Positions 12,009 to 46,336 of a stretch of DNA of 64,000 nt are shown one piece after another. The stretch is from Candidatus Iainarchaeum sp. (lineage in GTDB: Archaea; Iainarchaeota; Iainarchaeia; Iainarchaeales; VGJJ01), in assembly GCA_043803765.1 (NCBI GenBank), contig JAZDJQ010000012.1:66238-130237 (forward strand). The letters run 5' to 3'. Both the position numbers and the translations under genes were made by a program. The notes under the pieces are model-generated. The model was not told the origin of the DNA. It saw nothing but the letters and a program-made list of their open reading frames with translations, and made no database searches. Positions within the stretch are counted from its first letter, which is position 1. Every line of letters starts with the position of its first letter.

Positions 12009-12011
12009 CTT

Positions 12012-27800: not shown

Positions 27801-29500
27801 GGCGTGGTGCTTACAAATTCTATTATCCCGCTTGTTGTGTGTTCTTCTGCAAATGTGTTTCCGCCCGTGTCTTCGATGGTGATGGTTCCGATGAATGGGT
27901 TTCCATTAAGGTAGTGTGCATTTAGTGTTACTCCATGTAACCCGTCCGATAGCGTGAGGATAACTTTGTTGAGTCCCGGAATGATTTGGATTTGTTGTTC
28001 CGCTGATTCGTCTCCTTTTTCTGCTCGTACGCGGATTGTTTTTCCTGTTTGAATGCGCGATGTAAAACTCCCCGCGGCATCCGTTGGCTTTCCGCTCACA
28101 AGAGGAAGAAACTGTCCATCCACTTCTTCGTCGATTGAAACGCTCGCGGAGGGGGCGGCCGCTCCATTGGATTCGTTTACAAACACGGTTAGAATTCCCG
28201 CACTCCCGCTCGTGAATGGTGTTAAGTTGAGTGTCATGACTGCGGAATCGTCCTCGATTTGTAATTGGGTCCAGTCTACGCTTGCGCGTGTGGGGAAAAA
28301 GTTGGGGTGAAATCCCAGCAAATAATACGTGTTCACTTGATTCAGTCCGCCGAAAATAACTTCTCCTGAAAAGTTGCTTGTTTCATGGTCGATGCGTGCA
28401 TAGGATGCGTCCAGCACGTCTACATCTACTCCGTCTAATGGTTGAGTAGAATTCCCGTTCTGCGTAAGCACGACTAGATTGACTCCTCCATTCTGCAAGG
28501 GAATGAGCATTGTTTCTGTATCATTGCGCAGTGTTTTTCCTCCGGGATATATTGATTCGCTTGAAAAGGTAACGTAGTTTTCTTTCTTTACCGTTACCCG
28601 CACAACGTGACCTTTAGGCAACTGTTCAGCGTGTGTTCCCGTTCCAGTATCAACGTCCGTAATAATCTCATTTGTTTGGGCATTCTCAATTGTAATATGC
28701 ACATCGGACAAAGGAAATTGGGTCTTGGCATCCACTACTTTTATTTCCAATAAGCTGGGGCCGTTTGAAGCGCCGGCTTTGGGTGTCATTTCTTTTGTTT
28801 TAACATCTCCGCTTGTAAATGTAATGAAATCATGCAAATCTTCATAGTTGGTTGCCTTTATTGAGAGTGTAATTTCCTGGTTGAGCGGGACGTTTAACAA
28901 TGCAATTCCATCTCCTCCCGGATACGTTGTGAGTATGCTTCCTCCTCCGACCCATTCTGCTGTAATGGTTGCATCCTTGATTGTGGTTCCTGTTTCTCCA
29001 TCAATGAGCCGCAGTTTTCCCACAATGGCTTCATTGTCTCCTTTCAATAATAGTTTCAGGTTTTCCGTATCGGGATTGAAGTAGGATGTTTTTTCTCCAT
29101 ATCCTTGTTTGGTCGCCGTGATTTTCAATTCACTAGCAGGAAGAATTCCAGATAGGGTAATGGTTTGTCCATCCGATGCGGTCATTTCTTTGAGTAGTTT
29201 TCCATCCCCGTCATAGATGCGCACGGTTACATCACTTAATGAAAGTCCTTTTTCATCTTTCAATGAAAGTGTAAGCGAAACATCTTGTGATGAAATGGCA
29301 GTGGAGGCGAAAAATAGAATACTTAGTAGTAATATCAGCAATCCTGCCGTGAAGGGCATTGCAGGAACTCCTTTGGTTTCAAGAAAGTCATTGTATGCCC
29401 ATGGAAGTCCAATTCCTTTCTCTTCAAAGAAGTCGAGAATCCCATAATAGGCATCCTCTGCCTTCATGTAAAAATTCCCAAGCGTGTCGCTCAATCCCAT
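21896..29500 (-). CDS. Giant surface protein G3 (2534 aa).
   Basis: N-terminus MGLSDTLGNFYMKAEDAYYGILDFFEEKGIGLPWAYNDFLETKGVPAMPF plus TM, a more diverged copy of the motif. Long repetitive ectodomain with Ig-like repeats. A tatatata TATA-like box lies about 35 nt upstream. Confidence 0.9.
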   Translation of the reverse strand: MGLSDTLGNFYMKAEDAYYGILDFFEEKGIGLPWAYNDFLETKGVPAMPFTAGLLILLLSILFFASTAISSQDVSLTLSLKDEKGLSLSDVTVRIYDGDGKLLKEMTASDGQTITLSGILPASELKITATKQGYGEKTSYFNPDTENLKLLLKGDNEAIVGKLRLIDGETGTTIKDATITAEWVGGGSILTTYPGGDGIALLNVPLNQEITLSIKATNYEDLHDFITFTSGDVKTKEMTPKAGASNGPSLLEIKVVDAKTQFPLSDVHITIENAQTNEIITDVDTGTGTHAEQLPKGHVVRVTVKKENYVTFSSESIYPGGKTLRNDTETMLIPLQNGGVNLVVLTQNGNSTQPLDGVDVDVLDASYARIDHETSNFSGEVIFGGLNQVNTYYLLGFHPNFFPTRASVDWTQLQIEDDSAVMTLNLTPFTSGSAGILTVFVNESNGAAAPSASVSIDEEVDGQFLPLVSGKPTDAAGSFTSRIQTGKTIRVRAEKGDESAEQQIQIIPGLNKVILTLSDGLHGVTLNAHYLNGNPFIGTITIEDTGGNTFAEEHTTSGIIEFVSTTPNDTINMHAESDDGKTFTQTISIAGKTQLEWVLDDVATASGNAPTITYMGLFTPNGEAAPGISPEQDVFARFSVAWPSGMNKGGLLVRTGPDTMGNVDSQYVGIVGVNGESGFITYGKTWTPLPKPGNEAKDRKTVASPNTLAKWVEITRMNPTGTSTFDIRLRAREGSPAGLYELHYRAFTLNVTQTFRTPNDTELGTSSFVSTKSGLYAETLSTGVPVFDAQPFCQNGICAVISLIDEDARSFDAGAFQAVAQKPYALQVTLLPSLIQGSQSLSTSTIPKEGLIANTELQPALNGTVIKAQTDPDEPLIVFTKTEVNTFGKIENNGNKDTSISVNIPAVSGTNGTQARVHFYTEEVGDASITLQIISNNAQLSQTIPFPIVEAQLLRVTLPDHVNPNESFLLTITDEEGTPITDALITLTSITGEFAGSIKGKNTLNKGESGKYLFNKPLSPGFYHVKVKVPGFVDFEDTLNVGIDSPLSMNEKNAIHISYGQMQATQNIVLTNKTNQPVTNVTGEFLEYDLFPKDILIEVGIIPVIPANGKGDLVIIAHYTGNAEDTSVLSGAGKLKVRGEINDAFPVETEGQLEATYNKQLDSSCLTFDKERVSVVLSGETQPYGNMYGTGGAYNPTPSYYGNNAVPNQYNYLSNGYNNLGYDDQGYYQNAENKRVSVKAKNNCGEELILIPGISTQGGQLEVDGLKIAAVDSQLRLGNGQERQVDFTLSNRLFRAGFVPAQANYALMFKAPQLTASLPLDIIFQDKSKSLQTPLSVTLNLVKAGNTKATDRVSVPITNIGASLIYDIRGTLEGDKIEGVTLKLENNHSSSTSTSGNDTYAGGYYQTGYYSQDSALSPGQTLYPPLAIIGESTTDKAELGSQRLVLTGVVDGKRIQLKTVDVYIQTGATSCLEVSAFNTPISFVSSQIQGTLSKRITVSNKCLEPVRITQVNPDNASGNTLGITPVEFSDTLEKDEEREFNITLNKSNPYKATFPIRVKGIMILSQKAVESNPINIEIALGENELESTQSSNAIEVPYCEGGMAQIKFPQLAQKNECSQAYCDAEQAANMLSTLIEQHIAKAAQQLQSKKNDASLFKNCDLTQHYCTFEQLGIKSSSIDLYLQHDVITPNLLEFVMKDGTYPRLSGMQTETLTSLGGDDADAGFEARLGTTLGNKIFLPEIQGCGKYRIAIIGSVEVVGNQLQPDAINVAVKLISPRQKTAECADKIYNAANFLPKDRSLTALNNKQTLLGVVKYPIALEEAAQWLAETVFGTKDRAIQNTGSNRMDLQIGKLTQSVVELTLDPATHGDGTKRIITTIRGSGSDIPKAAVIEAGKIITSLGKNVNGCITKDEQTWRISAVKDVGKFTFEGCALPGTKEGGLIVRPNPTCCELSTRSTEVSEATYSLEPNGNDPMPGLLTLNLYEKKGSNTDGAIPGDQLTIGSPYALPFDTKEQVYQKDILLCATANAETQHLANKMTIQTSATRLLDNTKAGPLTFELRTCTMDADDALAKAYEKGTGVWYATIDWDDPVSSKTLKQAVTEAANGKKAGDAFFAYQGQGILASDDPVYQEKFKGKQQAAMAWFGGTCIASCLACHGVAAVFTLGTTLPAAAVDCGITCGVGTGIGFYELNKEKADGIPVLENIVDATETIYGVPRDFATSPLDQSMEMEPANSSLFAAETTNLIKAIKSPIPVKKLTYVDPKAAIDQAHLAFLKEVDESVAKKIVNNTKVADEYLSKWTSKQVKVGKIKVPAPPDPPIRTQLANKIELFDAEKQKIADGFANLKTKYSANPNFNVAEFEQLEKRAQASLRILTSEYDETLNGLKNNIINGKNTLLRTGPIDVAKNSIKKAVTEAADKAGKITVPEKFIQTKAVKKTTGFLRGLVCGGIGGVAGYAAYRSDLSDEIENKISLGAESVNVIDPVSNNIVFEKGHTYKFVVSPGEGEGKSEKISIDILSPDQRVPAAAWLDDCSPK

Positions 29501-29563
29501 ACCTTTTCCCTAATCAAACGCAGTTCTTGAGTATATATAAATGAAGGGTGTTTTCCGCAATAA

Positions 29564-30097
29564 CTAGACTAATTCCTGCGCATGAAGCCGCGTGATGATT
29601 TGATGCCGGTGTACCCATCCCGCGTATATCAGGGCAAACCCTGCAATGAGCAGGACGCGGAATAACACATCGTGCGTGAGCATGGCAAATGAAAGGGGAG
29701 TGTGTTCCAATTGGAGAATGGTAACCATCATGCGTGCTAAATTAAATCCATAGAGCAGGATGATTCCAATGATGATTCCTTTGATGCGCGCATACAACGA
29801 ATGTTTCTTCGTTGCCAGGATGGCGGTTCCAAGCAAAATGAATTCAATTAATCCCGTACATCGTGGGGAAATCTCAATATTTTTTCCATTCATCCAAAAT
29901 GAAATGGGATTGTTTCCATCGGTTGTTTGAATTCCTACTCGATTCAATAGTTCGCGCACATGTTCTGCTTCAATGATTTGCAAACGATATTCGTGTGGTG
30001 AAAAAAAAAGGAAGAAAATAGTAAATAATACTCCCCACCCTACAAGGAAAGTAATCAGTGTTTTTCTCCATTCGGTTGGGGAATGCAGGTTAACCAT
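29564..30097 (-). CDS. 177-aa polytopic membrane protein, candidate minimal exosortase/archaeosortase-family transpeptidase.
   Basis: About 5 TM helices. Cys80 sits in ISPRCTGL (compare the CSG active-site context). Arg122 is in GFNLAR and Arg164 follows, so the Cys-to-Arg spacing is +42/+84, similar to the ArtA catalytic triad spacing (+41/+80). Family assignment is from memory of motifs, not a search. Confidence 0.4.
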   Translation of the reverse strand: MVNLHSPTEWRKTLITFLVGWGVLFTIFFLFFSPHEYRLQIIEAEHVRELLNRVGIQTTDGNNPISFWMNGKNIEISPRCTGLIEFILLGTAILATKKHSLYARIKGIIIGIILLYGFNLARMMVTILQLEHTPLSFAMLTHDVLFRVLLIAGFALIYAGWVHRHQIITRLHAQELV

Positions 30098-31294: not shown

Positions 31295-33301
31295 TCAACG
31301 ATTGGCTTTCTTAATAATTGTGACGATTCCCTTGTCCGCATCCACAATTATTTCGTCCCCGTCTTTCAGTATTTTGGTTGCAACGTTCGTTCCTATAATG
31401 CATGGTTTGTTTAATTCGCGTGCCACGATGGCAGCATGCGACGTTATTCCGCCTTCATCGGTAATAATAGCACGCGCCATCCTCATTACTGGAACGAAAT
31501 CTGGATGAGTCATTTCCGTAACTAGTATTTCACCCTCCTGGAATAGATTTAGTTTATCCTTGGATTGGATAATTCGTACTTTGCCTGTTACCTTCCCCTT
31601 GTAAGCAGGTTGTCCTTTAATTTCCTTCAAATTTTCAGCGACTTTTTCTTCATATAAAAAAAGGCCTCTTTTTTCAAGTTCGGATGATAATTCATCCCCT
31701 AAATAGAGATTGCCATTCAAAAGTGCATAACCAGCCAGTCGCTTTCGAATACGTGCCACAACTTTCTTTTCAAGCCCCTCTTCAGCCAACTTAATTGCTT
31801 CTGCCGGAGTTAGTATAGAGCTAAGTTCCGAATATGCTCCAAATTTTTTTGGCCAAAATTCCATCCATATGTCGCTCATACGGTCTGAGTATCGTTCAAA
31901 TAACGCGCGGCGTTTCGTTGCCTCTGCAATAATTTGCTGCGACATATTTGGCAAATTAGGAGCATAAAACATTACTTTCATTGCCGACCACCACATCATG
32001 AGACTATGATAATAAGCCTCAAAATCGTGGATTGCTTCAAGTTGTTTTTCTCCAGACAACCATGGTTTTAGAGTACCCCATTCAGTGTCCAATCGACTAG
32101 TTAAACGGTTCAACACTGTCGGATCTGCGTTCAAAACACCCACCATTTTCTCCTTCAACACACGCATTTCTTCTGAGTCATACCAAACCGAAGTCGAAGT
32201 GCCATCAAAAACAAAAAGATTATTAGAAAGTTGAAAATCAAAGAAGTCTTTGAAACTTACACGATCACTCTCATTCCACAAATAAAAATAAAATAATGGT
32301 CTTTCACGAGAAAAAGTTTTAGTCAAAAATATCTTACTATTTGTATTATCCAAAACTTTCGACAACGTCGTAATTGGTCTACTCTGCGTAATGTAAAAGA
32401 CCCCTTTCTCCAATGCCCACTCTACATCAACCGGAAAACCATAATGCGCTTCAATTTTCAAAATGAGTCTTCCCAATTCCTGAATTTGAGTATCATCAAG
32501 TTTCTGCAAGGAACCCTTTTCGGAACTTATTTCCTTCCATTCATTGCCCCCATTTTCCAAACGAAAAATACCTTTCTTCTGCTCGCTCACATTCTTATCC
32601 AAAATACCAAAAGGCTTCTTCTCCAACACATACGAATCGGGCGTAATCTGACCCGAAACAATCGCCTCACCCAATCCAAGGCCTGCTTCGATAACCATTT
32701 GATTATAGTCTTGCGTCACCGGATGCACGGAAAACGCAATACCTGATACTTCGCTCTCCACCATCTTCTGAACCACAACTGCAACCGAAATAGTTGCATC
32801 GTGCAGTCCCTTCTCAAAACGATAAAAGATAGCCCGCGATGTGAAAAGAGAGGCCCAGCATTTTTTCATATTCTCTAATAATTTATCTTTTGTCGTATTC
32901 AGAAACGTATCCAACTGACCCGCCCAGGCCGCCGAGGAAGAATCCTCTGCCGTAGCCGAAGAACGAACCGCAACAAATGGAGAATTTAGTTCGTTAAAAT
33001 GTGAAAGAATCTCCTCCTGCAAATCAACTGGCAGTGTTTGAGTTAAAATCAGTGATTGAATTTTCTCACTCGCACGCTCAACGGATTCCATCTCCAAATG
33101 ATTTACCTTATGCAAAATAGAGTCAATGTCCGCTTTGATGCCCTTTTCTGAAATATACCGGTCGAACGCGAAAGAAAGAACCACAAAACCAAGAGGAACG
33201 GGAATTTTCGCTTGGGTCATCTCCCCCAACGATGCTCCTTTTCCCCCTGCGATCGGGGTGTCATGCCGGTCAATCCGGGTAAAGGGTTTAACGAAAGGCA
33301 T
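31295..33301 (-). CDS. PEP-utilising enzyme family protein (PEP synthase / pyruvate, water dikinase-like). Has a PPDK_N ATP-grasp domain and a C-terminal phospho-His mobile domain.
   Basis: N-terminus from ATG 33301: MPFVKPFTRIDRHDTPIAGGKGASLGEM. C-terminus has GGITSHAAIVARELNKPCIIG. No C-terminal TIM-barrel PEP-binding domain. The ORF extends upstream to 33475 but that extension is unlikely. Confidence 0.8.
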   Translation of the reverse strand: MPFVKPFTRIDRHDTPIAGGKGASLGEMTQAKIPVPLGFVVLSFAFDRYISEKGIKADIDSILHKVNHLEMESVERASEKIQSLILTQTLPVDLQEEILSHFNELNSPFVAVRSSATAEDSSSAAWAGQLDTFLNTTKDKLLENMKKCWASLFTSRAIFYRFEKGLHDATISVAVVVQKMVESEVSGIAFSVHPVTQDYNQMVIEAGLGLGEAIVSGQITPDSYVLEKKPFGILDKNVSEQKKGIFRLENGGNEWKEISSEKGSLQKLDDTQIQELGRLILKIEAHYGFPVDVEWALEKGVFYITQSRPITTLSKVLDNTNSKIFLTKTFSRERPLFYFYLWNESDRVSFKDFFDFQLSNNLFVFDGTSTSVWYDSEEMRVLKEKMVGVLNADPTVLNRLTSRLDTEWGTLKPWLSGEKQLEAIHDFEAYYHSLMMWWSAMKVMFYAPNLPNMSQQIIAEATKRRALFERYSDRMSDIWMEFWPKKFGAYSELSSILTPAEAIKLAEEGLEKKVVARIRKRLAGYALLNGNLYLGDELSSELEKRGLFLYEEKVAENLKEIKGQPAYKGKVTGKVRIIQSKDKLNLFQEGEILVTEMTHPDFVPVMRMARAIITDEGGITSHAAIVARELNKPCIIGTNVATKILKDGDEIIVDADKGIVTIIKKANR

Positions 33302-33391
33302 GGATAAATTCTTCAGGAATCCTCTTTTTAACGCGTGGCGGTGGCGTGCCAACGGCATATTTATATTGTTTTTCTTACTTTTCTTACTTGT

Positions 33392-33649
33392 ATGACAGAT
33401 GTGGCGATTGTAACCGTAAGCGAAAAAGGGCAGATTGCCCTCCCTAAAAAAACGCGGGAGCGATGGGGAATTCATAAGGGGGACAAATTATTGTTGTTGG
33501 AAAACAAGGGAAAAATCGTTTTGGCACCCGTTAAAGGGTCAAAAGAAGCTGCGGATGTGGATGAGATGCAGTGGATAATGGGGGTGTCCGCTCAAGTCTT
33601 GAAGGAGGATTGGGATTACAAGGGGGATGATGTCTGGGATGAGTTATGA
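33392..33649 (+). CDS. AbrB/MazE-type antitoxin (SpoVT/AbrB swapped-hairpin domain).
   Basis: MTDVAIVTVSEKGQIALPKKTRERWGIHKGDKLLL is a typical AbrB/MazE fold signature. Overlaps the downstream toxin gene by 23 nt. The ORF track starts at GTG 33335; ATG 33392 is preferred. Confidence 0.7.
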   Translation: MTDVAIVTVSEKGQIALPKKTRERWGIHKGDKLLLLENKGKIVLAPVKGSKEAADVDEMQWIMGVSAQVLKEDWDYKGDDVWDEL

Positions 33650-33989
33650 GCAGGGGGATATTGTATTAATGTATTATCCCAATACGGATCTTTCAACGGG
33701 TAAAAAAAGACCCGCATTAGTAGTATCAAATAGTGCGTTTAATTCTCGACAGGATGATCTGATTACGTGTCTCATTACGAGCAATATCGAACAAGACCCG
33801 TTGGGAGTCATTATTGATTTCCATGATTTATCAGAGGGGAGTTTGCCGGTAAGGAGTCGCATTAAACCGTATCGAATTTTCACGGCTAAAAAAGGGGTCA
33901 TTGAAAAAAAGCTGGGGGTAATCTCGAAACGGAAATTAAATGAGACGTTTGAAAAAATACAAAAGGTAATACGGCCCGCCGTGGTGTAA
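33627..33989 (+). CDS. MazF/PemK-family toxin (mRNA interferase).
   Basis: GDIVLMYYP...KKRPALVVSNSAFN...LITCLITS matches the Kid/PemK/MazF pattern. Coupled to the upstream antitoxin. Confidence 0.75.
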   Translation: MMSGMSYEQGDIVLMYYPNTDLSTGKKRPALVVSNSAFNSRQDDLITCLITSNIEQDPLGVIIDFHDLSEGSLPVRSRIKPYRIFTAKKGVIEKKLGVISKRKLNETFEKIQKVIRPAVV

Positions 33990-34135: not shown

Positions 34136-37100
34136 ATGGATTGTCGAGCAATCCCTTTATACACGCGCGACTGGAGTGAGACAACGATGAAGATTGGAGG
34201 TTTTGAAGTCGGCCCCTATGCGGTGCGGGAGGAAGGGGGAAAGAAGCACCTCATCTATGCGTGTAAAGACTGTGTTTTTGGTGCGAGTCTAGCCGATGAT
34301 GCGCATTGTCGTTTTCACGTGTTGAATATTTTGCAAAAATCCGATGCGGATTTGATTGTGCTTGCGGATGTATATGAGCGCGTATACAATGAGGAGCAAA
34401 CAAAGAATTGGAAAGAGATTGCGGATTTGATTAATGAGTTCAAGGGAAAAGAATACTGGAGTTATTCTCATTTAGGCGACCCGGAGAAAGAAAACGAGGC
34501 AGAGTTTGGTGCGCGACACGATGAGATGATGCAGATAACGTATGAAGTTCTTTCATACGATCCAATCAAGGCATACCTTCGTTGTCTTTCTGCACTCAAA
34601 AGGGAAGCGGGAAAAGCAAAGAGTGGTGGAAACGCATCTCCAGTATATGGTAAAACTCTTCAATCGGTGAGAGAATCATTTGAGAAAACAAAATTTATTC
34701 AGCAGACAAAAGAATATTTGTTGAGATTGGATTCCATTCCCGATTCAAATGAATTGTATCGTCATTTCTTTGAAGCCGAAGTAAAGCCGTCCTTTATTGG
34801 TTCACGCTTAATGTTTGGAAATGAAGTGGAGAATTTTGAATTATTGGACGAGTATTCTGTTGGAAAGTCTACGGTTCAAATATTCAATCATCCAAACAAA
34901 GTGGCTAAATTATATTTTGTGAATCCGCCTGAATATTCTCTCTCTCCTGAAAAATATTTTCTCCTTAGTAAGACGAAAGAAGTAGTATCGGGATACAACC
35001 CCGGACGTTCCGGATTATCGGACATTGCTTCCTCTCGAAACTATTTTACTCGTGTCTATCAAGCCACCATTCGTGATTTGGCTCATCGGAATAACATCAA
35101 AATAGAAAACGAGGAAATTGAAGAGTTAGCGGAAGTCGTGTCCCGCTATACGGTAGGATACGGCATACTGGAATTGTTGCTGTCCGACCGAAAAATAACC
35201 GACATCTTTTTGGATTCCCCCATAGGGGGAAAACCCGTGTACTTGGTGCACGCCGAATACGGACAGTGCATGACGAATATTTTGTACACGGAGAATGAAG
35301 CGGAAGCATTTGTTTCTAAACTTCGCGCCATGAGCGGCAGGCCGTTCGATGAAGCCCACCCGGTATTAGACTTTGATTTGCCGGGGCAGGAAACCCGTGT
35401 GGCGAGCATTGGAAAACCGCTTTCCCCGGATGGTTTAGCATTTGCTTTTCGCCTGCACAAAACAACCCCCTGGACGCTTGAACAATACATTGACAATAAG
35501 TTTCTCACCCCTCTTGCTGCGGGAATGCTTTCTTTTTTTGTTGATTCTAAAGCAACGATGCTCGTAACCGGTTCCCGCGGGAGTGGAAAAACAAGCTTGT
35601 TGAGTGCATTGATGCTTGAAATATTGCAGAACTCGCGATTGATTGTGCAGGAGGATAGCGTTACAGGGGATTCTGAAATATTGGTTGAAAACAACAACCA
35701 AATGGAATACACCACGGTAGGAAAACTCGTTGACAAACAAATGGAGGAATTCGGAAGCCTGCCCATACACAATAGAGAATTATTAGACTGCAACCCGAAT
35801 AATATACACGTCTTTGCATTGGATAAAAATGGGAGAATCCAACTTCAGCGTGTGTCCCAATTCAGCCGGCACAAAGTGACAAAAGAGATTATTGAAGTCA
35901 CTACACGCAGTGGGAGAAAAATAAAAGTGACGTGCGATCACTCATTATTCAGTCTGAATGAGAGTGGAAGAATTGTTCCGGTCAAGACATCAGCATTAAC
36001 ACTAGGGAGTTATGTGGCAGTTCCTAAACTGTTTTCATCCGAAAACAGTCCTATCCCCGCATTTTCAGGATTGGAAGCGCTCGCATTGGAAGAAAAAGCG
36101 CTTCTCAAGGGGGAGACCTTACGGCTTTTTGTCAGCCAGAATTGGATAGAAGTAAAAAAATGGGCAAATGAAAAAGGATATCAAAAGAGCACCCCAAGCG
36201 CGTGGAAACGGGCGGGAATACTTCCAGCAAAGCTCTTTATACTATTGAATGGACCATCCCAAATTCCCATTAAAAACATTCAATTCAAACTAGACAGGAA
36301 ATCAAAGGAAATTCCACTTGTATGGGAAGCAAACGAAGATTTGGTGACTCTCGCGGGATTGTGGCTTGCGGATGGATGTTATGACACACGGTATGGAATG
36401 ATTGTTTCCGTTGGCGATGAGCCGAGCAAACAATTGCTTGAACGTTTCGCTGAACGATTGGGATTAACCACTCGGGAACATAGCGACGGGTTTTCCACTA
36501 TTATCTCAAACACGAATCTCGTGTGGTTCTGGAAAAATGTGATGAAATTGAATGGAAACGCGTACACTAAAGAATTCCCTCAGTGGATTTTTAATGCATC
36601 GAAATCCCAACAGGGCCGTTTTTTGAGAGGATTATTCAGCGGAGACGGGTGTGTAACCCAAAATGAAATAAATATTTCGTTAGCCTCGGAGAAGATGACC
36701 AAACAGATTCAAACGCTCCTGACCCATTTTGGAATTATTTCCCGTAAAAGAAAAATAGATGAAAAAGACAAAACATATCAAACCTATATTGGGGAATGGA
36801 ATCATTTCAATTCCTTCCAGAAAAATATCGGGTTTTTACCCCAACACAAAGTAGAACGGCTGAACAATCTGTGCTCCAAAAAAAGAGCCACGCATGACAC
36901 GCTTGATATCGTACCAATATCCAAAGAAAATATCAAAAATATTGCGGCCGTGTCTGAACCGTTTAATTCGCATGATTATATTGGAAAAGGAAATAGAATG
37001 GGAAGACGTAAGCTTCAATCATTGCTTTCCACAGTGAAAACGCAAACGGTTCTTATTGATGGTCTCAAACAAACAATGAACTCGGATGTATTTTTCGATG

Positions 37101-38038
37101 AAGTGGTGGAATTGCAAAAAATAGAACATGAAGAAACATATGTGTATGATTTTTCAGTCCCGGATGCGGAAAACTTTGTTTGTGAAAACATTATTGCACA
37201 CAACACACTGGAGTTACCAGTCCCCTACCTGAAAGAAATAGGGTTTAATGTTCAGCGATTGAAAACAAGATCTCCTATTGGAGTGAGCAAGAGTGATACC
37301 GAAGTGGCTCCGGAAGAAGCATTGCGTACCGCATTACGTTTAGGTGATTCTGCTCTCATACTGGGAGAGGTTCGTTCCGAGGAAGCACGGGTGTTATACG
37401 AGGCCATGCGGGTAGGGGCTGCAGGAAACACCGTATTAGGAACAATTCACGCCGACTCGGCCTATAGTGTGTGGGACAGAGTGGTGAATGATTTGAAAGT
37501 TCCTACGACTAGTTTTAAGGCAACCGATTTGGTCGTGGTTGCACGTCCCATTCGTTTTTCAGGAAGTTTAAAGTCGCATCGCCGAATGACCCAAATAACC
37601 GAAGTAAAAAAACACTGGAATAAGGACCCTGACCGTGAAGGCGGATTATTGGATTTGATGCTGTATGATGCCCGTACGGACGCATTAGAATTAATGGAGG
37701 ATAATCTAAAAGAAAGCGAATTGTTTGAACGCATACGCCGATTGTCAGGGTTAACACTTAATCAAATATGGGATGATATCCGAACTCAAGCGAATGCTAA
37801 ACTATTCATGGTTGAATTGAAAAACCAATACAAGATTCCTGAAATACTTGAAGGGGAATACACTTCCTCTGCTCGCGCCAAACTTGCATTAATCAAAGAC
37901 CAGCAAATACAAGAACACGGTTCTCCTGATTTTGCAGAATTATTAGTAGAGTGGAAAGAATGGGTGAAAAAGAACACACTACAATCCGTCCTAACGAAGA
38001 AACAACAGCGCGAAGAAGAAAAAAAAGAAAACGAATAA
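34136..38038 (+). CDS. Type II/IV secretion-system ATPase (FlaI/VirB11/PilB-like, archaeal pilus assembly ATPase) with an in-frame intein. Spliced product is about 784 aa.
   Basis: Walker A LVTGSRGSGKTS. Asp box RLIVQED|intein|TLEL, which is IVQEDTLEL when spliced. Walker B DSALILGEVRSEEA. His box VLGTIHADSA. The N-terminal extension contains a CKDC…HCRFH Cys/His cluster. Confidence 0.85.
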   Translation: MDCRAIPLYTRDWSETTMKIGGFEVGPYAVREEGGKKHLIYACKDCVFGASLADDAHCRFHVLNILQKSDADLIVLADVYERVYNEEQTKNWKEIADLINEFKGKEYWSYSHLGDPEKENEAEFGARHDEMMQITYEVLSYDPIKAYLRCLSALKREAGKAKSGGNASPVYGKTLQSVRESFEKTKFIQQTKEYLLRLDSIPDSNELYRHFFEAEVKPSFIGSRLMFGNEVENFELLDEYSVGKSTVQIFNHPNKVAKLYFVNPPEYSLSPEKYFLLSKTKEVVSGYNPGRSGLSDIASSRNYFTRVYQATIRDLAHRNNIKIENEEIEELAEVVSRYTVGYGILELLLSDRKITDIFLDSPIGGKPVYLVHAEYGQCMTNILYTENEAEAFVSKLRAMSGRPFDEAHPVLDFDLPGQETRVASIGKPLSPDGLAFAFRLHKTTPWTLEQYIDNKFLTPLAAGMLSFFVDSKATMLVTGSRGSGKTSLLSALMLEILQNSRLIVQEDSVTGDSEILVENNNQMEYTTVGKLVDKQMEEFGSLPIHNRELLDCNPNNIHVFALDKNGRIQLQRVSQFSRHKVTKEIIEVTTRSGRKIKVTCDHSLFSLNESGRIVPVKTSALTLGSYVAVPKLFSSENSPIPAFSGLEALALEEKALLKGETLRLFVSQNWIEVKKWANEKGYQKSTPSAWKRAGILPAKLFILLNGPSQIPIKNIQFKLDRKSKEIPLVWEANEDLVTLAGLWLADGCYDTRYGMIVSVGDEPSKQLLERFAERLGLTTREHSDGFSTIISNTNLVWFWKNVMKLNGNAYTKEFPQWIFNASKSQQGRFLRGLFSGDGCVTQNEINISLASEKMTKQIQTLLTHFGIISRKRKIDEKDKTYQTYIGEWNHFNSFQKNIGFLPQHKVERLNNLCSKKRATHDTLDIVPISKENIKNIAAVSEPFNSHDYIGKGNRMGRRKLQSLLSTVKTQTVLIDGLKQTMNSDVFFDEVVELQKIEHEETYVYDFSVPDAENFVCENIIAHNTLELPVPYLKEIGFNVQRLKTRSPIGVSKSDTEVAPEEALRTALRLGDSALILGEVRSEEARVLYEAMRVGAAGNTVLGTIHADSAYSVWDRVVNDLKVPTTSFKATDLVVVARPIRFSGSLKSHRRMTQITEVKKHWNKDPDREGGLLDLMLYDARTDALELMEDNLKESELFERIRRLSGLTLNQIWDDIRTQANAKLFMVELKNQYKIPEILEGEYTSSARAKLALIKDQQIQEHGSPDFAELLVEWKEWVKKNTLQSVLTKKQQREEEKKENE
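35657..37204 (+). mobile_element. Intein (516 aa) with a LAGLIDADG homing endonuclease, inserted in the Asp box of the secretion ATPase.
   Basis: Block A SVTGDSEILV (Ser1). Block B VTCDHSLFS. LAGLIDADG motifs LAGLWLADG and FLRGLFSGDG. Block F VYDFSVPDAENFV. Block G IIAHN followed by Thr+1. Confidence 0.85.
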
Positions 38039-38101: not shown

Positions 38102-39901
38102 TTACGTTAACCAATCAAACAATGTGTCCCAGAAAGAATCGGTCGAATCTTTACCTGTTCCATCTTCGCTCCCATTACTGGTTGTCCCGTTGGGCATGCA
38201 ATACAAGAGAATAGAGTCCCACTGGGTTCCATCGGTACACCCATAATCGTCTGAAGTATCATCTTGACCCGGTTCGTCCGGCATAAGTATGTAACACAGT
38301 TTATTGAGTTCGTCCCAGCCGAATCCGTCGGGGCACACGTGATAGTACTCACCGTTATCGGTTCCGCATAGCAACAAATCGCCAAAAGAGAAGGGATACT
38401 GGCAGGTCGGGACGGGAAAATTATAATTTAAGCACGTCGGATAAAGGGGATCGAATACCGAGATGGGCCAATTGCATTTATTGTAAGGAGTCAACATGCA
38501 CAGCTTGTCGGTTTCATCCCAGTCATAAAATTGGGAGCAGGGGTCACTTCCATCCGCACAAAACCAACTATACCCGCCATCCGGGGAAACGGGGTCGGGA
38601 CAGGAAGGCCACTTCCCTTCTTTTAAGAGACAAACCAAAAACGGTTCTGCTTCAGCTGGATCATGAGGAAGAGGACAAGGACCACTTGGCGTGCTCGTAT
38701 CATCTCCGTCGTCGTCATCCGTGCACTCAGGACACTTACAGGCTACTGCACTAATATCGTATTCGCAGATAGGCGGATCATTACAAGCCCCCGGACCCGT
38801 GGTAACAGGACAATATTTTCTGTTGCAATATTCTTCAAGAAGCATTACGAGATCATTTTCGCTTAGCTGACTAATGTCGAGTCCTTTTATTCCAGCCATC
38901 AACGCGACAGCCGCACTCGTGTCAACGCTCCCTGCACATTCTCCTCCCTCTGATGCCCCGCCTCCGCCGCCGGGTGCCACTGGACTATTTGGACCGGGCG
39001 TTGTTGAACCCGGGGGAGATCCACCGCCCCCAGTGGTCGTCGGACCCGACCCAGAAGGAGCCGTGGGGGAACCAGGGCCGGGAGTAGAACATCCTTCGGC
39101 ATCATATTTACACTCGCAACCGTACTTATCCTCTCCATGTTCACCCACAGCTATGTAGCCCGTACATTTTCCTTCCATCATGCATCCAAGAGGGCCTGTT
39201 TTGTCGGGGCATTCACGTTGGTTGCATCGTGCGTTGTTCACCATGTCGTAGTCTTCCGGAGTACTGTGTTCGTCAATAAGTTGGTCATACATTTTCGCAA
39301 GCTGTTCTTGGGTCAAACCCGGTGCATCCTTGCAAATGTTACTTCCCCCTGTAGTCGGACCACTGGGTTTCGATTCCGGCCCAGATGGTGCTTGGGGAGT
39401 TGTGGCTCCTCCGGTGGTTGGTCCATATGGATCCCTACACTCACAAGAGTATTCATCTTCCGACTCATAAGTAGACATGGTGCACACTTCCCCCGGTGGG
39501 CACCTTCCGCCACAATTGGTCGAACTTCCGCAGGTGTAAAAAGCTTCTATAACCTCGTTAACAATACCGGCTGCTACTCTTTTTGGAAAGCACAAAATAT
39601 TCTCAGCTGCATCGGCAGTAACAGAGATAAATCCCCCTATGTTCTCTGAAAGAACCCCACAAGCGAGTCCAGCGGAGCCAGCCGCTCCAATGATAACCCC
39701 CAACTCACTCGCAGCAGAGAAGGGAAGAGCAACAAGCGCGATGGATCCTTCCCCAAAGGTATCCACTGATTCAATAGCATTATCTTTGAACGAACTCATC
39801 CATCCTGCCGAGACGAGGGAGGCGTGTTGTCCTATCTGGAATCCTACAACCGACACCAAAAGAAGGGAGAGAATCAATACTTGAAAGAGAGGTGATTTCA
39901 T
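38102..39901 (-). CDS. Secreted Cys-rich protein (599 aa) with Pro/Gly/Thr-rich linkers.
   Basis: N-terminal signal peptide MKSPLFQVLILSLLLVSVVG. More than 50 Cys in CxC/CxxC clusters. PTTGG/PGS low-complexity linkers. An acidic DDDDGDD stretch. Confidence 0.7.
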   Translation of the reverse strand: MKSPLFQVLILSLLLVSVVGFQIGQHASLVSAGWMSSFKDNAIESVDTFGEGSIALVALPFSAASELGVIIGAAGSAGLACGVLSENIGGFISVTADAAENILCFPKRVAAGIVNEVIEAFYTCGSSTNCGGRCPPGEVCTMSTYESEDEYSCECRDPYGPTTGGATTPQAPSGPESKPSGPTTGGSNICKDAPGLTQEQLAKMYDQLIDEHSTPEDYDMVNNARCNQRECPDKTGPLGCMMEGKCTGYIAVGEHGEDKYGCECKYDAEGCSTPGPGSPTAPSGSGPTTTGGGGSPPGSTTPGPNSPVAPGGGGGASEGGECAGSVDTSAAVALMAGIKGLDISQLSENDLVMLLEEYCNRKYCPVTTGPGACNDPPICEYDISAVACKCPECTDDDDGDDTSTPSGPCPLPHDPAEAEPFLVCLLKEGKWPSCPDPVSPDGGYSWFCADGSDPCSQFYDWDETDKLCMLTPYNKCNWPISVFDPLYPTCLNYNFPVPTCQYPFSFGDLLLCGTDNGEYYHVCPDGFGWDELNKLCYILMPDEPGQDDTSDDYGCTDGTQWDSILLYCMPNGTTSNGSEDGTGKDSTDSFWDTLFDWLT

Positions 39902-39905
39902 GCTT

Positions 39906-40310
39906 TCATCCTCCGGGGAGGCTCTCCTTGATTTCAGTAATTATGGCTTGGGGCAGTTTTTCTGCAAAAATTTCTTGCATCTCTAAGCACTTGATAGACT
40001 CATTATGATACCCGCAAGTCATGGCAACCAATTCCCCTTTCTTCGCTGCTTCTTCAACTATCTCAGTGGCTTGTTCAATAGTGTAGATATTAGTAGTTTT
40101 CGAGTACGGTATCGCTTCCGTAATACTCATACCTTCAACCTTAAACAATACGGCCGCTTGCACATTACTGTTCTCCGCGCCCCCTCCGAGGAATCGGCTG
40201 GCGAATCCTTGGGGGGTATCTATCAAGCCTCCTAACATGATGCTGGCGATGAAAACAATGAAGAAAATGAGTGCTACTACAATCGTTCGCGAACGGTCAG
40301 CCTTCGGCAT
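39906..40310 (-). CDS. Small N-terminally anchored protein (134 aa), unknown.
   Basis: ORF 4 nt upstream of the Cys-rich gene, so likely an operon. Single N-terminal TM. Confidence 0.45.
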   Translation of the reverse strand: MPKADRSRTIVVALIFFIVFIASIMLGGLIDTPQGFASRFLGGGAENSNVQAAVLFKVEGMSITEAIPYSKTTNIYTIEQATEIVEEAAKKGELVAMTCGYHNESIKCLEMQEIFAEKLPQAIITEIKESLPGG

Positions 40311-40455: not shown

Positions 40456-40566
40456 TTATGCAGGTATCTTTAGTCTAAAAGTAATGGCTTGCGGATACGT
40501 GTAAGGGAGCAGGTTTGTCGTTGCCGAGGCCTTCTTTATAAAAACGACAAGTGTTCTTCACAAGGA

Positions 40567-42903
40567 ATGCCTCCTCAACGATTCGCTCAAAAGAAGGAAA
40601 GCGGGAACCGGCTCACTCCCCGTAATGAGAATGCATCTCCTTCTATTGGAAGCCTTTACAAGGATATTCCGGTTTCGAGTGATGCTTTTTTTGCTAAAGA
40701 GGATTTGGCTATTCCTAAAGAGCATGGATTCATTCGTTTCTGTCGGGACATGTACAAGCGTTTTCCGGGGATGGGAAAAGGAGCAGTATTCACGGAAGAG
40801 TATCAGGAAGCGGTTACGTTTTTAGGTTGGAGTTTGCGTCCGGAAGAATTTTCATCCGCAGTAAAAGGAAGCATGGTGTCAATACTACTAATTGGTGGAT
40901 TTCTTTCTGTTTTATTAGGAATTGTTTTTGGAGAAACCATTGGCGCCCTGTTGGGAGTAAGCGGACTTGTTTCCATTGTGTATCTTTTTTTTCCTGTTAT
41001 TGTTATTGCCGTGGTGGTTTCCAATTACATTCAAAAATTTCCCATTGCCGAAGCGCGTAGAGAAAAAATTCGTGCGCTTACATACGTTCCGGACATGATT
41101 GGATACATGATTATGTCCATGAAGCTTGTTCCTAATTTGGAAAAAGCAGTGGAGTTTTCCGCACAGCATGGAAAAGGAAGAATAGCGGAAGAATTTAGAC
41201 GGATCATTTGGAATACGCAATTAGGAGTATATACTACGGTAGCAGAGGGTTTGGATGATTTAGCCTATAAGTGGGGAAAGTTTTCATCCGAGTTCAAGCA
41301 GGCATTGATGAATATTCGCGCGTCGGTGTTGGAAAACACGGAAGCAAAGCGTTACCAATTGCTTGACAAAACAATGGATGATGTGTTGGAAAGTGTGCAA
41401 AATAAAATGGAACAATACGCGAGGGATTTATCTCAACCTTCTACCACATTGTTTTATGTGGGGGTGTTGCTTCCGCTAATACTTATTATTATTCTCCCGG
41501 TTGGAAGCGCGTTCTCGGGTTCTCCTCTTGCCCAGACATGGGTGTTGTTCCTCGTATACGATATTTTTCTTCCCATTTTAGTTATTTGGTTTGGGAATAA
41601 CTTGTTGCAATCCCGTCCTCCCACGTATACTCCTCCTGAGATACCGGATGGTTTTCCCGGGCTTCTTCCAAAAGATACGGTGCGCGTGGGAAAAGGAACA
41701 ATGAATGTATGGGTGGTAGTGGTAGGAATCATGATAGTAGGGGGTTTAACGTCCGGCTACCTGCACTTATTTGGTTTGGGGGTGGGAGAAGTGGATGCTC
41801 CCGGTTCATTGTATGTGCTTGCTCCTGACCATACTCTTCAACGGGTATTAGATGTGGATAGGAAACCGTTAGATTGGTTTGAGGAGAATGGAACACGGGA
41901 GTCTCAGCTCGTAGCACAAGGACTTTCGGTAGAGGAAGCGCGTGTTATTGTAGGAACGGAGAAAACGCGTTTTTTTGCTCAATCGGAAAATGATGTAACG
42001 CCCTATAATCTCATTTTTGGTATTCTGATAACGGTAAGCATGGCGATTGCCGCCTATGTTGGATTAACTCTCGCTGAGAAAAGAAAGATACAGCAGAAAT
42101 ACATGCAGATGGAATCCGAATTCAAGGATAGTTTGTATGTGTTAGCGTCTCGTTTAGGAGAAAACAAGCCGATTGAGGATGCATTGCGTCACGCGCAAAC
42201 GTTTTTGCCTAACAACATTGTTTCGCAGGAAGTGTTTGGTAAGACAGTAGATAATATTCATGTATTGGGAATGCCATTGGAGAGCGCGGTATTTGATCCG
42301 GCGTATGGTAGTTTGCGCAATAATCCTTCGCAAATGATTACGAGTTCAATGAAGATTGCCATTGACTCGGTTAGATTAGGGGTGGGAGTAGCCGCACGCA
42401 CGCTTATTTCTCTTTCACGGCAAATTGGAAATGCGGAAAGAGTAAGTAAAATGCTTACGATTCTCATCAAGGATATTACGGGAACAATGAAGACGGTATC
42501 GGTGTATATCGCCCCAATCGTATTGGGGATAACGACTAGTTTGCAGCGTGTAGTAATTGTTACATTAGTGAGTGTGAGTGCATCCAGTGAAGGAAGCCAA
42601 ACCATTGACCCTAATTTAGGGGCGAATATCCCTGGAGTCGAAAGCTTTGGAAGCACGGATATTGGTTCATTCATTAAAGCAGACGTGATTGCTACTCTTG
42701 CAACGCCGGGAGAATTCTTGTTGATTGTGGCGATTTATGTGATTGAGCTCGTGATTATTATGAATTATTTTGTCACCCTCATTGAGGAAAACAATAAACT
42801 TACCGCGAAACAGAATGCGGCAACCCAGCTCCCCATTGCGATTATATTGTTTGTTATTACGGTGATTGTGTCCAATTCATTAGTAGCAGGAAACTTTGGG
42901 TGA
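40567..42903 (+). CDS. Polytopic membrane protein, putative pilus platform protein of the FlaJ/TadC/PilC (T2SS-F) type.
   Basis: Two cytoplasmic domains carry the T2SSF-like signature: VPDMIGYMIMSMKLVPNLEKAV and FKDSLYVLASRLGENKPIEDAL. Each is followed by a TM bundle. Sits next to the secretion ATPase and pilin genes. Start is uncertain; the ORF track begins at a TTG at 40489. Confidence 0.5.
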   Translation: MPPQRFAQKKESGNRLTPRNENASPSIGSLYKDIPVSSDAFFAKEDLAIPKEHGFIRFCRDMYKRFPGMGKGAVFTEEYQEAVTFLGWSLRPEEFSSAVKGSMVSILLIGGFLSVLLGIVFGETIGALLGVSGLVSIVYLFFPVIVIAVVVSNYIQKFPIAEARREKIRALTYVPDMIGYMIMSMKLVPNLEKAVEFSAQHGKGRIAEEFRRIIWNTQLGVYTTVAEGLDDLAYKWGKFSSEFKQALMNIRASVLENTEAKRYQLLDKTMDDVLESVQNKMEQYARDLSQPSTTLFYVGVLLPLILIIILPVGSAFSGSPLAQTWVLFLVYDIFLPILVIWFGNNLLQSRPPTYTPPEIPDGFPGLLPKDTVRVGKGTMNVWVVVVGIMIVGGLTSGYLHLFGLGVGEVDAPGSLYVLAPDHTLQRVLDVDRKPLDWFEENGTRESQLVAQGLSVEEARVIVGTEKTRFFAQSENDVTPYNLIFGILITVSMAIAAYVGLTLAEKRKIQQKYMQMESEFKDSLYVLASRLGENKPIEDALRHAQTFLPNNIVSQEVFGKTVDNIHVLGMPLESAVFDPAYGSLRNNPSQMITSSMKIAIDSVRLGVGVAARTLISLSRQIGNAERVSKMLTILIKDITGTMKTVSVYIAPIVLGITTSLQRVVIVTLVSVSASSEGSQTIDPNLGANIPGVESFGSTDIGSFIKADVIATLATPGEFLLIVAIYVIELVIIMNYFVTLIEENNKLTAKQNAATQLPIAIILFVITVIVSNSLVAGNFG

Positions 42904-42960
42904 ATGGAAAGAAAAAGAGGAGAATGCGCTGTGCGAAAATTTTATCCAATTAGAAAAAAA

Positions 42961-43434
42961 ATGAATAACAAAGGACAGGCGTTTGAGGCCTACCGTGTTC
43001 TCATTGCGATGGTTATTTCTCTTGCCATCCTTACCATTATTCTTTCCGCGGTAACGTATTTTGACACGTTGCGTGAAAAAGTAAGCATTGATACATTGTA
43101 TTCCTCGTGGAAGAGTGCGGTTGATTCTCCTAATGGAAAAGTCGTGTTGGCTAAGGACTTGTATTTTACCTCTCAAACCACTTTTGGCAAACGCCAGTTT
43201 GCATTACAAGCGGGGTTGGATGAGGCCTGCATTGGTTTTGATGCGGAAAAGGCGGCCGGATTCATTTTGAATGATGCTAATCCCGATAAGCCGGTTGTGA
43301 CGTTAACGCGCGGAGTAGTAGGAAACGTGTACATGGAGTGCCAGACTGAAAACTTCCTCCTTGAGCCGGCTCCCCCTGATTGTTATGCGTACTGCCTGAT
43401 TTCTTTTGGAAAGCTCATTGCCGGACCTATCTAA
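42961..43434 (+). CDS. Archaeal type IV pilin-like protein with a class III signal peptide.
   Basis: MNNKGQAFEAYRVLIAMVISLAILTIILSAV has the KGQ prepilin-peptidase site followed by a hydrophobic helix. Confidence 0.7.
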   Translation: MNNKGQAFEAYRVLIAMVISLAILTIILSAVTYFDTLREKVSIDTLYSSWKSAVDSPNGKVVLAKDLYFTSQTTFGKRQFALQAGLDEACIGFDAEKAAGFILNDANPDKPVVTLTRGVVGNVYMECQTENFLLEPAPPDCYAYCLISFGKLIAGPI

Positions 43435-43610: not shown

Positions 43611-44132
43611 ATGAATACTCGAGGACAGGCCTTTTCCACATTCCAGTTGCTTATTGCCGCAGTAGTAGCGTTGGCAATACTAGTATTATTGTTGAATATT
43701 ATTGGTAGTCTCCCTAATTTGGGTGGGCAGAAACCCAACAAGGTAGCATCGGATTTGGTTGCAAGTCAAGTGAATGCTCCTTCTGAATTGCGTACGAGCA
43801 ACTCGGTTACGTTTACTCGGGAGGATTCCCTCAATGCTCAGGCGATTGCATCCGCTTCTCAAGTAGTAACACAGGGACAATTATGCTTGTCGTTGGGTGA
43901 TTTTCCTGAAGATGGGGATTTTACTACGAATGATAGCGGGAATATTATCAAGTATGCCGGCTCGTCCAATTTGCGCGTGCGGTTATCCGTTATTTGCGAC
44001 ACGGGAACCGAATTAATAGATGATTTGACTGATAATGGAATTGTGGATGATTGGACATCCAGTAATTCGGCATGCGGTGATGTCACCAGTTTGAGTCAAA
44101 CCGCGTGTATTGTTGCACTCCGCTTTGCGTAG
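43611..44132 (+). CDS. Archaeal type IV pilin-like protein with a class III signal peptide.
   Basis: MNTRGQAFSTFQLLIAAVVALAILVLLLNIIG is paralogous in its N-terminus to 42961..43434. Confidence 0.7.
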   Translation: MNTRGQAFSTFQLLIAAVVALAILVLLLNIIGSLPNLGGQKPNKVASDLVASQVNAPSELRTSNSVTFTREDSLNAQAIASASQVVTQGQLCLSLGDFPEDGDFTTNDSGNIIKYAGSSNLRVRLSVICDTGTELIDDLTDNGIVDDWTSSNSACGDVTSLSQTACIVALRFA

Positions 44133-46283: not shown

Positions 46284-46336
46284 ATCCGCAAACGTATTTC
46301 GCGTGAAAAAGCATTAAAAACACGCCGTCCAGCCCG

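Follow-up and report, generated by a model that had tools for sequence, protein, structure and literature searches.

The interrupted ATPase gene

The DNA analyzed here, called the window throughout, is a stretch of 64,000 nucleotides (nt) from contig JAZDJQ010000012.1 of a metagenome-assembled genome (MAG) whose organism is a Candidatus Diapherotrites (DPANN) archaeon. It carries a secretion ATPase gene that is interrupted in frame by an intein. The open reading frame (ORF) listing of the window gives a single uninterrupted ORF at 34136..38038 on the plus strand, encoding 1300 amino acids (aa). Residues 508-1023 of this ORF form an insert that begins with SVTGDSEILV, ends with IIAHN and is followed by TLEL. 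With these boundaries it is 516 aa long and occupies 35657..37204. An initial annotation of this DNA had described a 1,300-aa secretion ATPase with a 516-aa insert, and the coordinates it gave are reproduced exactly. The motifs that it quoted (Walker A and Walker B, Asp box, His box, the intein blocks and two LAGLIDADG motifs) are all present where they are expected. The parts of the precursor that belong to the host protein are listed below.

34136..38038, plus strand: precursor gene, T2SS/T4P/T4SS-family ATPase with in-frame intein; 1300 aa from the first ATG, 1283 aa from MKIGG at nt 34187
34136..35656, plus strand: N-extein, with a lineage-specific N-terminal region of ~310 aa, the ATPase N-domain, Walker A and the first half of the Asp box
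35570..35596, plus strand: Walker A, GSRGSGKTS
35636..35656, plus strand: first half of the Asp box, RLIVQED, directly before the insert
37205..38038, plus strand: C-extein, with Thr+1, the second half of the Asp box, Walker B, the His box and the C-terminal domain
37205..37216, plus strand: second half of the Asp box, TLEL, directly after the insert; Thr+1 is 37205..37207
37346..37387, plus strand: Walker B, DSALILGEVRSEEA
37436..37462, plus strand: His box, LGTIHADSA

The first ATG lies 17 codons upstream of MKIGG, so that the segment 34136..34186 precedes it. The NCBI protein record for this gene (P0001, 'MAG: ATPase, T2SS/T4P/T4SS family [Candidatus Diapherotrites archaeon]') corresponds exactly to ORF residues 18-1300, and the orthologues examined begin at or within a few residues of MK/EIGG. 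On these grounds the true start of the gene is probably 34187. The NCBI name is silent on the intein, and the mature ATPase is ~767 aa, not 1283.

With the insert removed, the two halves of the host protein join into an ordinary ATPase. Among solved structures the spliced extein matched AfGspE (2OAP) with an E value of 1.9e-29, and CpaF and FlaI were matched as well. The alignment with AfGspE passes over the splice junction without a gap (livqedtlelpv against vvsiedtreikl), CpaF and FlaI also align there, and Walker A, Asp box, Walker B and His box align in order with all three proteins. The Pfam model T2SSE (PF00437) matches the precursor in two separate stretches and the spliced protein in one contiguous stretch, covering residues 397-629 of 767 aa with 66.2 bits (cut-off 24.9); the spliced protein is numbered from the annotated start, which places the junction at 490/491 (a slash marks an insertion point throughout). 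Since the extein is contiguous over the junction and gives a single T2SSE stretch, the intein site lies between the Asp and the Thr of the Asp box (E-D/T-x-E). This is the split between D and T that the initial annotation had read. It had staked its interpretation on contiguous alignment of the extein halves to homologous ATPases, and the gap-free junction bears this out.

The host had also been labeled a FlaI/VirB11-like pilus ATPase. Membership in the T2SSE superfamily stands, but assignment to FlaI or TadA proper does not. The host scored 122.5 bits against a cut-off of 550 with the FlaI equivalog model NF058587 and 120.8 bits against a cut-off of 373.15 with the TadA/CpaF model TIGR03819, far enough below the NCBIfam cut-offs to rule out both identities, and no archaellin or Fla accessory genes were seen near the ATPase. 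The host is better described as a long T2SSE ATPase, specific to DPANN archaea, in a locus that is pilus-like. Its family is long (~760 aa); by their source names, most members come from Candidatus Diapherotrites and some from Micrarchaeota.

The N-terminal extension of ~310 aa contains, at window positions 34250..34340, a C-x2-C...C-x2-H pattern, CKDCVFGASLADDAHCRFH, that is kept in most orthologues and lost in protein P0086 (IDARDAFYTPSIADDRNARYH). No family match was found for this region. The pattern may represent a zinc-binding module.

A class 1 intein with a nested homing endonuclease

Curated profiles, matches to solved inteins and the predicted fold agree that the insert is a LAGLIDADG intein, the identity first proposed for it. 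The Pfam models Intein_splicing (92.2 bits against a cut-off of 35.8; E 3.8e-26) and LAGLIDADG_3 (65.4 bits against 22.5; E 5.5e-18) match the insert well above their thresholds, as does the NCBIfam model for the intein N-terminus (TIGR01445 intein_Nterm, E 2.8e-15, 57.1 bits, cut-off 24.5), and the C-terminal model (TIGR01443 intein_Cterm) scores 16.7 bits with a cut-off of 15.6. The insert also matches the intein-bearing parts of many archaeal equivalog models in NCBIfam. Sequence matches to solved inteins include PI-PkoII, the CDC21 intein and the inteins of Mja and Mvu TFIIB. AlphaFold2, given an alignment of 14 sequences, produced a model with a mean predicted local distance difference test (pLDDT) score of 90.7 and a predicted template modeling (pTM) score of 0.90. 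Searched against the PDB with Foldseek, it retrieved at the top PI-PkoII (2cw7; E 2.7e-32, template modeling scores 0.75/0.72), the endonuclease-intein TliVMA (7qss) and PI-PfuI (1dq3), with PI-SceI and I-DmoI among further matches.

Residue conservation was assessed in an alignment of the window intein with 13 inteins at the same site from the protein database (n = 14, identity down to 33%), and statements of invariance refer to these 14 alleles.

35657..37204, plus strand: intein, class 1, Ser1, 516 aa; HINT splicing domain with nested LAGLIDADG homing endonuclease and accessory domains, from profiles, alignment and predicted fold
35657..35686, plus strand: block A (N1), SVTGDSEILV; Ser1 (35657..35659) is the N-terminal nucleophile, invariant
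35867..35872, plus strand: NX motif, Arg71-His72; H72 invariant, the histidine signature of cysteine-less (oxyester) class 1 inteins
35927..35950, plus strand: block B (N3), VTCDHSLF; T92-C-D-H95 (T-x-x-H), with T92 and H95 invariant
36350..36376, plus strand: first LAGLIDADG motif, LAGLWLADG; D239 and G240 invariant
36569..36571, plus strand: Lys305, upstream of the second LAGLIDADG motif; invariant
36623..36649, plus strand: second LAGLIDADG motif, LRGLFSGDG; D330 and G331 invariant
37142..37180, plus strand: block F (C2), VYDFSVPDAENFV; Asp498 invariant
37190..37204, plus strand: block G (C1), IIAHN; penultimate His515 and terminal Asn516 invariant

The invariant positions are thus S1, H72, T92, H95, D239/G240, K305, D330/G331, D498, H515 and N516. 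They include the terminal His-Asn pair on which the initial annotation had made its reading depend. Thr+1 was found in all same-site alleles examined, so that both the Ser1 and the Thr+1 it had named are conserved at this site; Cys93 and Cys509 of the intein are not invariant. An NX-motif histidine preceded by Arg or Lys is the signature of class 1 inteins that combine Ser1 with Ser+1 or Thr+1 in oxyester chemistry (Pasch et al. 2023, PMC10189870). The residue before H72 is R or K in 13 of the 14 alleles and E in the other one, and PI-PkoII, aligned with the window intein, carries the same R-H at the NX position. The equivalence of H72 to PolB16 His68 was judged from its place between blocks A and B and from the alignment with PI-PkoII.

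Other intein classes were considered and rejected. A class 2 (KlbA-type) intein would have Ala1 and Cys+1, where this insert has Ser1 and Thr+1, and its insertion site is a different one. Class 3 (WCT) inteins have no N-terminal nucleophile, a Cys at position 4 of block F and a Trp in block B (PMC2807308). In the window intein Ser1 is present, position 4 of block F is Asp498 and block B has no Trp.

It is very likely that the insert is a canonical class 1 cysteine-less (oxyester) intein with a nested LAGLIDADG endonuclease, placed in frame between Asp507 and Thr1024 of a DPANN type-IV-pilus-like T2SSE ATPase. The Ser1/Thr+1 pair is not unusual: it is the normal chemistry of cysteine-less class 1 inteins, a recognized minority. 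Pasch et al. (2023, PMC10189870) drew 58 of them, belonging to 16 alleles, from InBase. In all respects the Asp-box intein conforms to the canonical picture.

A MAG can in principle contain chimeras, and we considered whether the insert might be an assembly chimera, a pseudogenized insertion or a non-splicing domain fusion, in any case not a functional intein. Against this, the ORF runs unbroken for 3.9 kb, the catalytic residues are conserved without exception, and confidence in the predicted fold is high. The same architecture occurs at the same codon boundary on independent contigs from NCBI, ENA, JGI and Logan. An assembly artifact was rejected on account of these contigs, and the explanation as a whole is extremely improbable.

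Proposed splicing and homing steps

The steps proposed here are modeled on the established class 1 pathway; splicing, DNA cleavage and present-day mobility are inferred. Translation would yield a precursor of 1283 or 1300 aa, depending on the start. This precursor should be inactive as an ATPase, since its Walker A belongs to the N-extein but its Walker B and His box belong to the C-extein. Ser1 would undergo an N-O acyl shift, assisted by Thr92 and His95 of block B and by His72 of the NX motif. The hydroxyl of Thr+1 would then attack the ester (trans-esterification) to give a branched intermediate, and cyclization of Asn516, assisted by His515, would release the intein. A final O-N shift would restore the sequence IVQED-TLEL and with it an active ATPase of 767 aa (784 aa from the first ATG). 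Residue conservation and the predicted fold support these splicing steps.

Once released, the intein (516 aa) is expected to be a site-specific endonuclease. It would cut the uninterrupted QED/TLE coding sequence of intein-less alleles, and repair of the cut allele would copy the intein in (homing). The uninterrupted site is seen, for example, at locus L014 as ...ATTATTGTGCAGGAAGAT/ACGCTCGAATTGCCCGTG..., and L019, L021 and L024 likewise hold intein-less alleles. The endonuclease and homing step is supported by conservation, selection and the population pattern described below.

Comparison with known inteins

The intein that the initial annotation had chosen for comparison is that of Methanocaldococcus jannaschii (Mja) KlbA (MJ0781; PDB 2JMZ). 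Like the window intein, it sits in an archaeal secretion ATPase of the VirB11/GspE family, beside a catalytic motif. The two share the HINT fold, with a Foldseek match to 2jmz and a sequence match of E 1.3e-6. The KlbA intein is of class 2, with Ala1 and Cys+1 (PMC2807308). It is a mini-intein of 168 aa, whereas the window intein is of class 1 (Ser1, Thr+1), has 516 aa and includes an endonuclease; they are separate alleles that differ in their chemistry. The sequence used for the Mja KlbA intein is identical to PDB 2JMZ over the aligned 167 residues, and a protein database search with it gave no match.

The KlbA site was read from Methanocaldococcus and Micrarchaeota genome loci, M. jannaschii not being among them. 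In Methanocaldococcus indicus KlbA (...ITIEDTPELQIP...GEVRGEEAHSLLVAMNTGHDG/ALIKDE...IVSN/CSGTLHANSA...) the Asp box IEDTPEL is intact and an Ala1 mini-intein lies at NTGHDG/CSGTLHANS, just before the His box. Together with a Micrarchaeota KlbA, this protein defines the KlbA site as TGH(D/R)G/C-x-GT-x-HA. A BLASTP comparison of spliced cores maps the site to G1097/N1098 of the window ORF, 74 extein residues downstream of D507/T1024. The earlier impression that insertion site and size are distinct from those of the KlbA mini-intein is therefore correct, and the splicing class differs too.

The best match to the window intein in both sequence (E 1.1e-20) and structure is PI-PkoII/PI-TkoII, from Thermococcus kodakarensis Pol-2 (2CW7). 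PI-PkoII, PI-PfuI (1DQ3), TliVMA (7QSS) and the window intein are alike in being archaeal and multi-domain: each joins a HINT domain to a LAGLIDADG core and accessory domains. The three known inteins differ in their hosts (DNA polymerase, ribonucleotide reductase and V-ATPase) and are 16-21% identical to the window intein. Endonuclease activity has been demonstrated for PI-PkoII, PI-PfuI and TliVMA, and that of the window intein is a prediction. PI-TkoII is also a Ser1 oxyester intein (PMC10189870).

Second to PI-PkoII, the splicing domain matches the Mja and Mvu TFIIB inteins (5O9J, 5O9I) with E 5.5e-18. MjaTFIIB is a characterized Ser1/Thr+1 cis-intein with the same junction chemistry (PMC10189870), but the host is a transcription factor and the solved constructs are mini-inteins without an endonuclease. 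Among curated models the best match is the RNA polymerase A'' intein (NCBIfam NF011491), with E 1.6e-56 for insert residues 1-516 against profile positions 76-543. It differs in host and site, and only the intein part of the model is matched, with a total score of 191.9 against a cut-off of 783.

Inteins have been cataloged in the same host family before. Table 3 of Novikova et al. (2016, PMC4760082) counts 21 inteins in archaeal VirB11 (COG0630) and 5 in CpaF, in Crenarchaeota, Euryarchaeota and 'other Archaea'; insertion sites are not given in the text. In the literature on FlaI inteins and on DPANN inteins we found nothing specific to the Asp-box site. The Asp-box intein is new, or at least not demonstrably cataloged, within a known kind of intein.

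Distribution of intein-bearing and intein-less alleles

The protein database was queried with the in-silico spliced extein and, separately, with the intein. Alleles without the intein, which the initial annotation had proposed to look for in related genomes, are common: among the best 120 extein matches, 110 had no intein at all, 9 had an intein of 511-517 aa at the QED/S...HN/TLE site, and 1 had an intein elsewhere. For every intein-bearing allele the nearest extein neighbor is intein-less. Five of these pairs, with their extein identities, are as follows.

P0086 (with intein) and P0042 (nearest without): 99.6%
P0008 (with intein) and P0006 (nearest without): 96.7%
P0076 (with intein) and P0028 (nearest without): 96.3%
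P0072 (with intein) and P0030 (nearest without): 94.9%
P0001, the window protein (with intein), and P0002 (nearest without): 89%

Pairs this close imply recent gain or loss of the intein. The query with the intein itself retrieved further same-site alleles in other T2SSE ATPases, 31-41% identical and 485-523 aa long, all with the ED/S...HN/T arrangement. The few named sources among these distant alleles are Nanoarchaeota, Aenigmarchaeota, Pacearchaeota and Micrarchaeota. No mini-intein derivative turned up at the Asp-box site, where every allele has its full length of 485-523 aa. The nearest non-allelic relatives in this query are inteins in myo-inositol-1-phosphate synthase, 25-30% identical.

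Selection and the question of mobility

The initial annotation had suggested that the intein may still be mobile. The alternative that has to be weighed is that the intein splices while its endonuclease, inactive or structural, is no longer an active homing enzyme, and that the patchy distribution reflects an old invasion followed by vertical inheritance and many independent precise deletions. The wide spread of the allele, at 31-41% identity over several DPANN phyla, agrees with an old invasion. Against a dead domain, the 14 alleles, down to 33% identity, without exception retain Lys305 and, in each LAGLIDADG motif, the catalytic Asp with its following Gly, and every allele has kept its full length.

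To compare coding sequences we used the nearest intein-bearing gene, that of P0008 (locus L016). For the LAGLIDADG core the proportion of nonsynonymous differences (pN) is 0.153 and that of synonymous differences (pS) 0.859; for the HINT domain the values are 0.123 and 0.66, and pN is far below pS in every part of the intein. Such a ratio in the core is unexpected for a dead domain. The sequence comparison indicates that the endonuclease core is under purifying selection, although the ratio of nonsynonymous to synonymous rates (dN/dS) is to be read as a bound, not a value, because synonymous sites are saturated between the two genes (pS reaches 0.76-0.86 in the extein, the LAGLIDADG core and the intein taken whole, and the Jukes-Cantor correction fails).

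A second line of evidence comes from the DNA at the insertion site. Synonymous changes in the TLEL codons were compared at window 37205..37216 and in the same codons of loci L014, L016 and L018-L024. The two closest pairs with and without the intein, at 3.3% and 4.7% nt divergence, each have 5 synonymous differences in the first 12 nt of the C-extein. L018 and L019 differ at 75 of 2274 nt; their TLEL differences fall at +2, +3, +5, +8 and +9, with none in the 100 nt upstream. In L020 and L021 the TLEL differences are at +2, +5, +8, +9 and +11. Synonymous TLEL variants include ACG CTT GAG CTG and ACC TTG GAA TTG. Counted within 15 nt on either side of the junction, differences number 5 in one of the two closest pairs, where 1.0 would be expected (P 0.0035), and 6 in the other, where the expectation is 1.4 (P 0.0032). 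At the Thr+1 codon, the four closest pairs, and also L016 and L014, have different third bases. The TLEL cluster could be left by co-conversion over a short tract, or by selection for target sites that resist cleavage. It would be hard to explain by simple deletion, and it fits ongoing or recent homing without proving it.

Several points weigh against continued mobility. The cluster was noticed post hoc and is clear in only two of the four close pairs, and the highly degenerate TLEL codons somewhat inflate the expected count; a rough correction, which is our inference, still leaves ~0.6-0.9 expected against 5 observed. No vector emerges, since the viral contig collection held no close copy of the intein, only distant inteins of at most 33% identity apart from short C-terminal fragments. 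Intein identity also tracks extein identity (70.5% against 87.4% in the closest pair, ~43-46% against ~64-65% in distant ones). For this reason vertical descent with repeated precise loss may explain much of the patchiness, and it is a serious alternative for much of the pattern. The scaling of divergence and the viral contigs are likewise what an endonuclease that has ceased to home would leave behind. Precise deletions that leave exteins 99.6% identical would, however, need to be frequent. Taking both sides together, we regard an intein that merely splices as unlikely, though it is the strongest of the competing explanations.

Mobility thus receives indirect support from the full-length alleles, the catalytic residues, purifying selection, the intein-bearing and intein-less pairs and the junction cluster. 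On a more speculative reading, the allele would be homing actively among the Diapherotrites of groundwater, whose target sites would carry synonymous 'immunity' changes; loci L017 and L018 come from Hainich groundwater.

Three intein sites in one ATPase family

Inteins at two further sites were seen in related ATPases. The single extein match with an intein elsewhere, P0114, has an intact Asp box (QEDTMEL) and a 500-aa Ser1/Thr+1 LAGLIDADG intein within Walker B (GEVRS/SIRGN...ILLHN/TEARV). That intein is 25% identical to the window intein, and the equivalent point in the window is S1081/E1082, nt ~37378. At locus L009, from a Candidatus Micrarchaeota MAG, the ORF 1867..4749 carries an Ala1/Cys+1 intein at the KlbA site (GHRG/AIGGNS...IVSN/CYGTVHANS). 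The insert is large and has the LAGLIDADG-like motifs LTGMIYGDGN and LRGMYDCNGW, whereas characterized KlbA inteins are mini-inteins. The catalytic motifs of the family thus hold inteins at three places: the Asp box, Walker B and the KlbA site before the His box. This makes the family an intein hot-spot comparable to the replicative helicases.

Recurrent insertion into catalytic motifs can be read in another way. The intein could have been co-opted as a post-translational switch, in which conditional splicing (in response to temperature, pH, ions or host-cell contact) gates assembly of the pilus-like apparatus; Walker A would be held away from Walker B and the His box for as long as the ATPase is not required. 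An insertion in a catalytic motif should leave the unspliced precursor inactive, and this ATPase family has three different sites for inteins. ATPase motifs are where inteins tend to cluster, and Novikova et al. (2016, PMC4760082) have suggested a regulatory role for them in general. Insertion in conserved motifs is equally expected, though, of a selfish element that targets conserved DNA. Most orthologues have no intein, even those with 99.6%-identical exteins, and the intein is therefore dispensable. A redox switch was rejected as a special case: the Ser1/Thr+1 junction provides no conserved catalytic cysteine as a sensor, and Cys93 and Cys509 vary. We consider a co-opted switch very unlikely. 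It would be an equally long shot that the Asp-box intein is a conditional gate of the pilus-like apparatus in episymbiotic DPANN archaea, with the three recurrent sites marking selection for control and not only endonuclease targeting.

Genomic context of the ATPase gene

Downstream of the interrupted ATPase gene, on the same strand, lie genes that may belong to the same apparatus.

40489..42903, plus strand: polytopic membrane protein with ~10 hydrophobic segments; weak T2SSF match (E 0.0014, below cut-off)
42904..43434 and 43611..44132, plus strand: two small pilin-like proteins with N-termini that resemble class III signal peptides (KGQAFEAYRVLIAMVISLAIL, RGQAFSTFQLLIAAVVALAIL)

Orthologues of the membrane protein stand directly downstream of the ATPase at loci L022 and L023 and have weak T2SSF matches too. 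It is probably the FlaJ/TadC-type platform partner of the ATPase. No family match was found for the two small proteins, which we infer to be pilins from their N-termini. The label 'pilus-type ATPase' is reasonable for the host.

The intervals on both sides of the ATPase vary among loci. Upstream, the region 31295..33989 separates a conserved 337-aa membrane protein from the ATPase. It includes a gene of the phosphoenolpyruvate (PEP)-utilizing/PPDK-like type at 31295..33475 on the minus strand and a MazE/MazF toxin-antitoxin pair at 33335..33649 and 33627..33989 on the plus strand. At the syntenic loci L014, L015 and L024 the ATPase directly follows a gene for 338-340 aa; at L016 a small SET-domain gene lies between the two, and at L020 a different MazE/PIN pair precedes the ATPase. 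Downstream, the minus-strand genes at 38102..40310 separate the ATPase from the platform gene. They encode a secreted-looking protein of 599 aa, rich in Cys, Gly, Pro and Thr, and a membrane-anchored protein of 134 aa, neither of which gave a Pfam match. No such minus-strand genes were called between the ATPase and the platform gene at L014, L018 and L019. The 38102..40310 region coincides with the 2-kb bin of highest GC content in the window (0.495 against ~0.38-0.47 elsewhere).

Farther upstream of the pilus locus, 4610..30097 on the minus strand holds three giant ORFs (2447, 2516 and 2534 aa) with CarboxypepD_reg, Big_1, SpaA-like or bMG3 repeats, beside a 571-aa ORF and an exosortase/archaeosortase-like gene (29564..30097). 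The order giant protein, exosortase-like gene, ~338-aa gene, ATPase is complete at L014 and partial at L015, L016 and L021. On the other side of the pilus locus are a tRNA-Asp gene (46211..46284, minus strand), a GatD-like asparaginase gene (47704..49038) and, at 49777..54738 on the minus strand, a gene for a 1653-aa surface-type protein with a TIG/IPT domain and a MopE-like metal-binding motif.

Implications

The Asp-box inteins of DPANN pilus ATPases form a clean and probably active intein family. Its practical value is modest. It adds a well-defined allele (Asp-box site, Ser1/Thr+1, NX histidine, full-length endonuclease) that is widespread in uncultivated DPANN archaea. Cysteine-less inteins are wanted in protein engineering because they splice without reducing agents (PMC10189870), and a Ser1/Thr+1 family from mesophilic groundwater organisms, with many natural variants, could be a useful source of them. 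For the biology of these archaea, pairs of intein-bearing and intein-less alleles with extein identities of up to 99.6% offer a natural system in which the homing cycle can be studied in an uncultured lineage.

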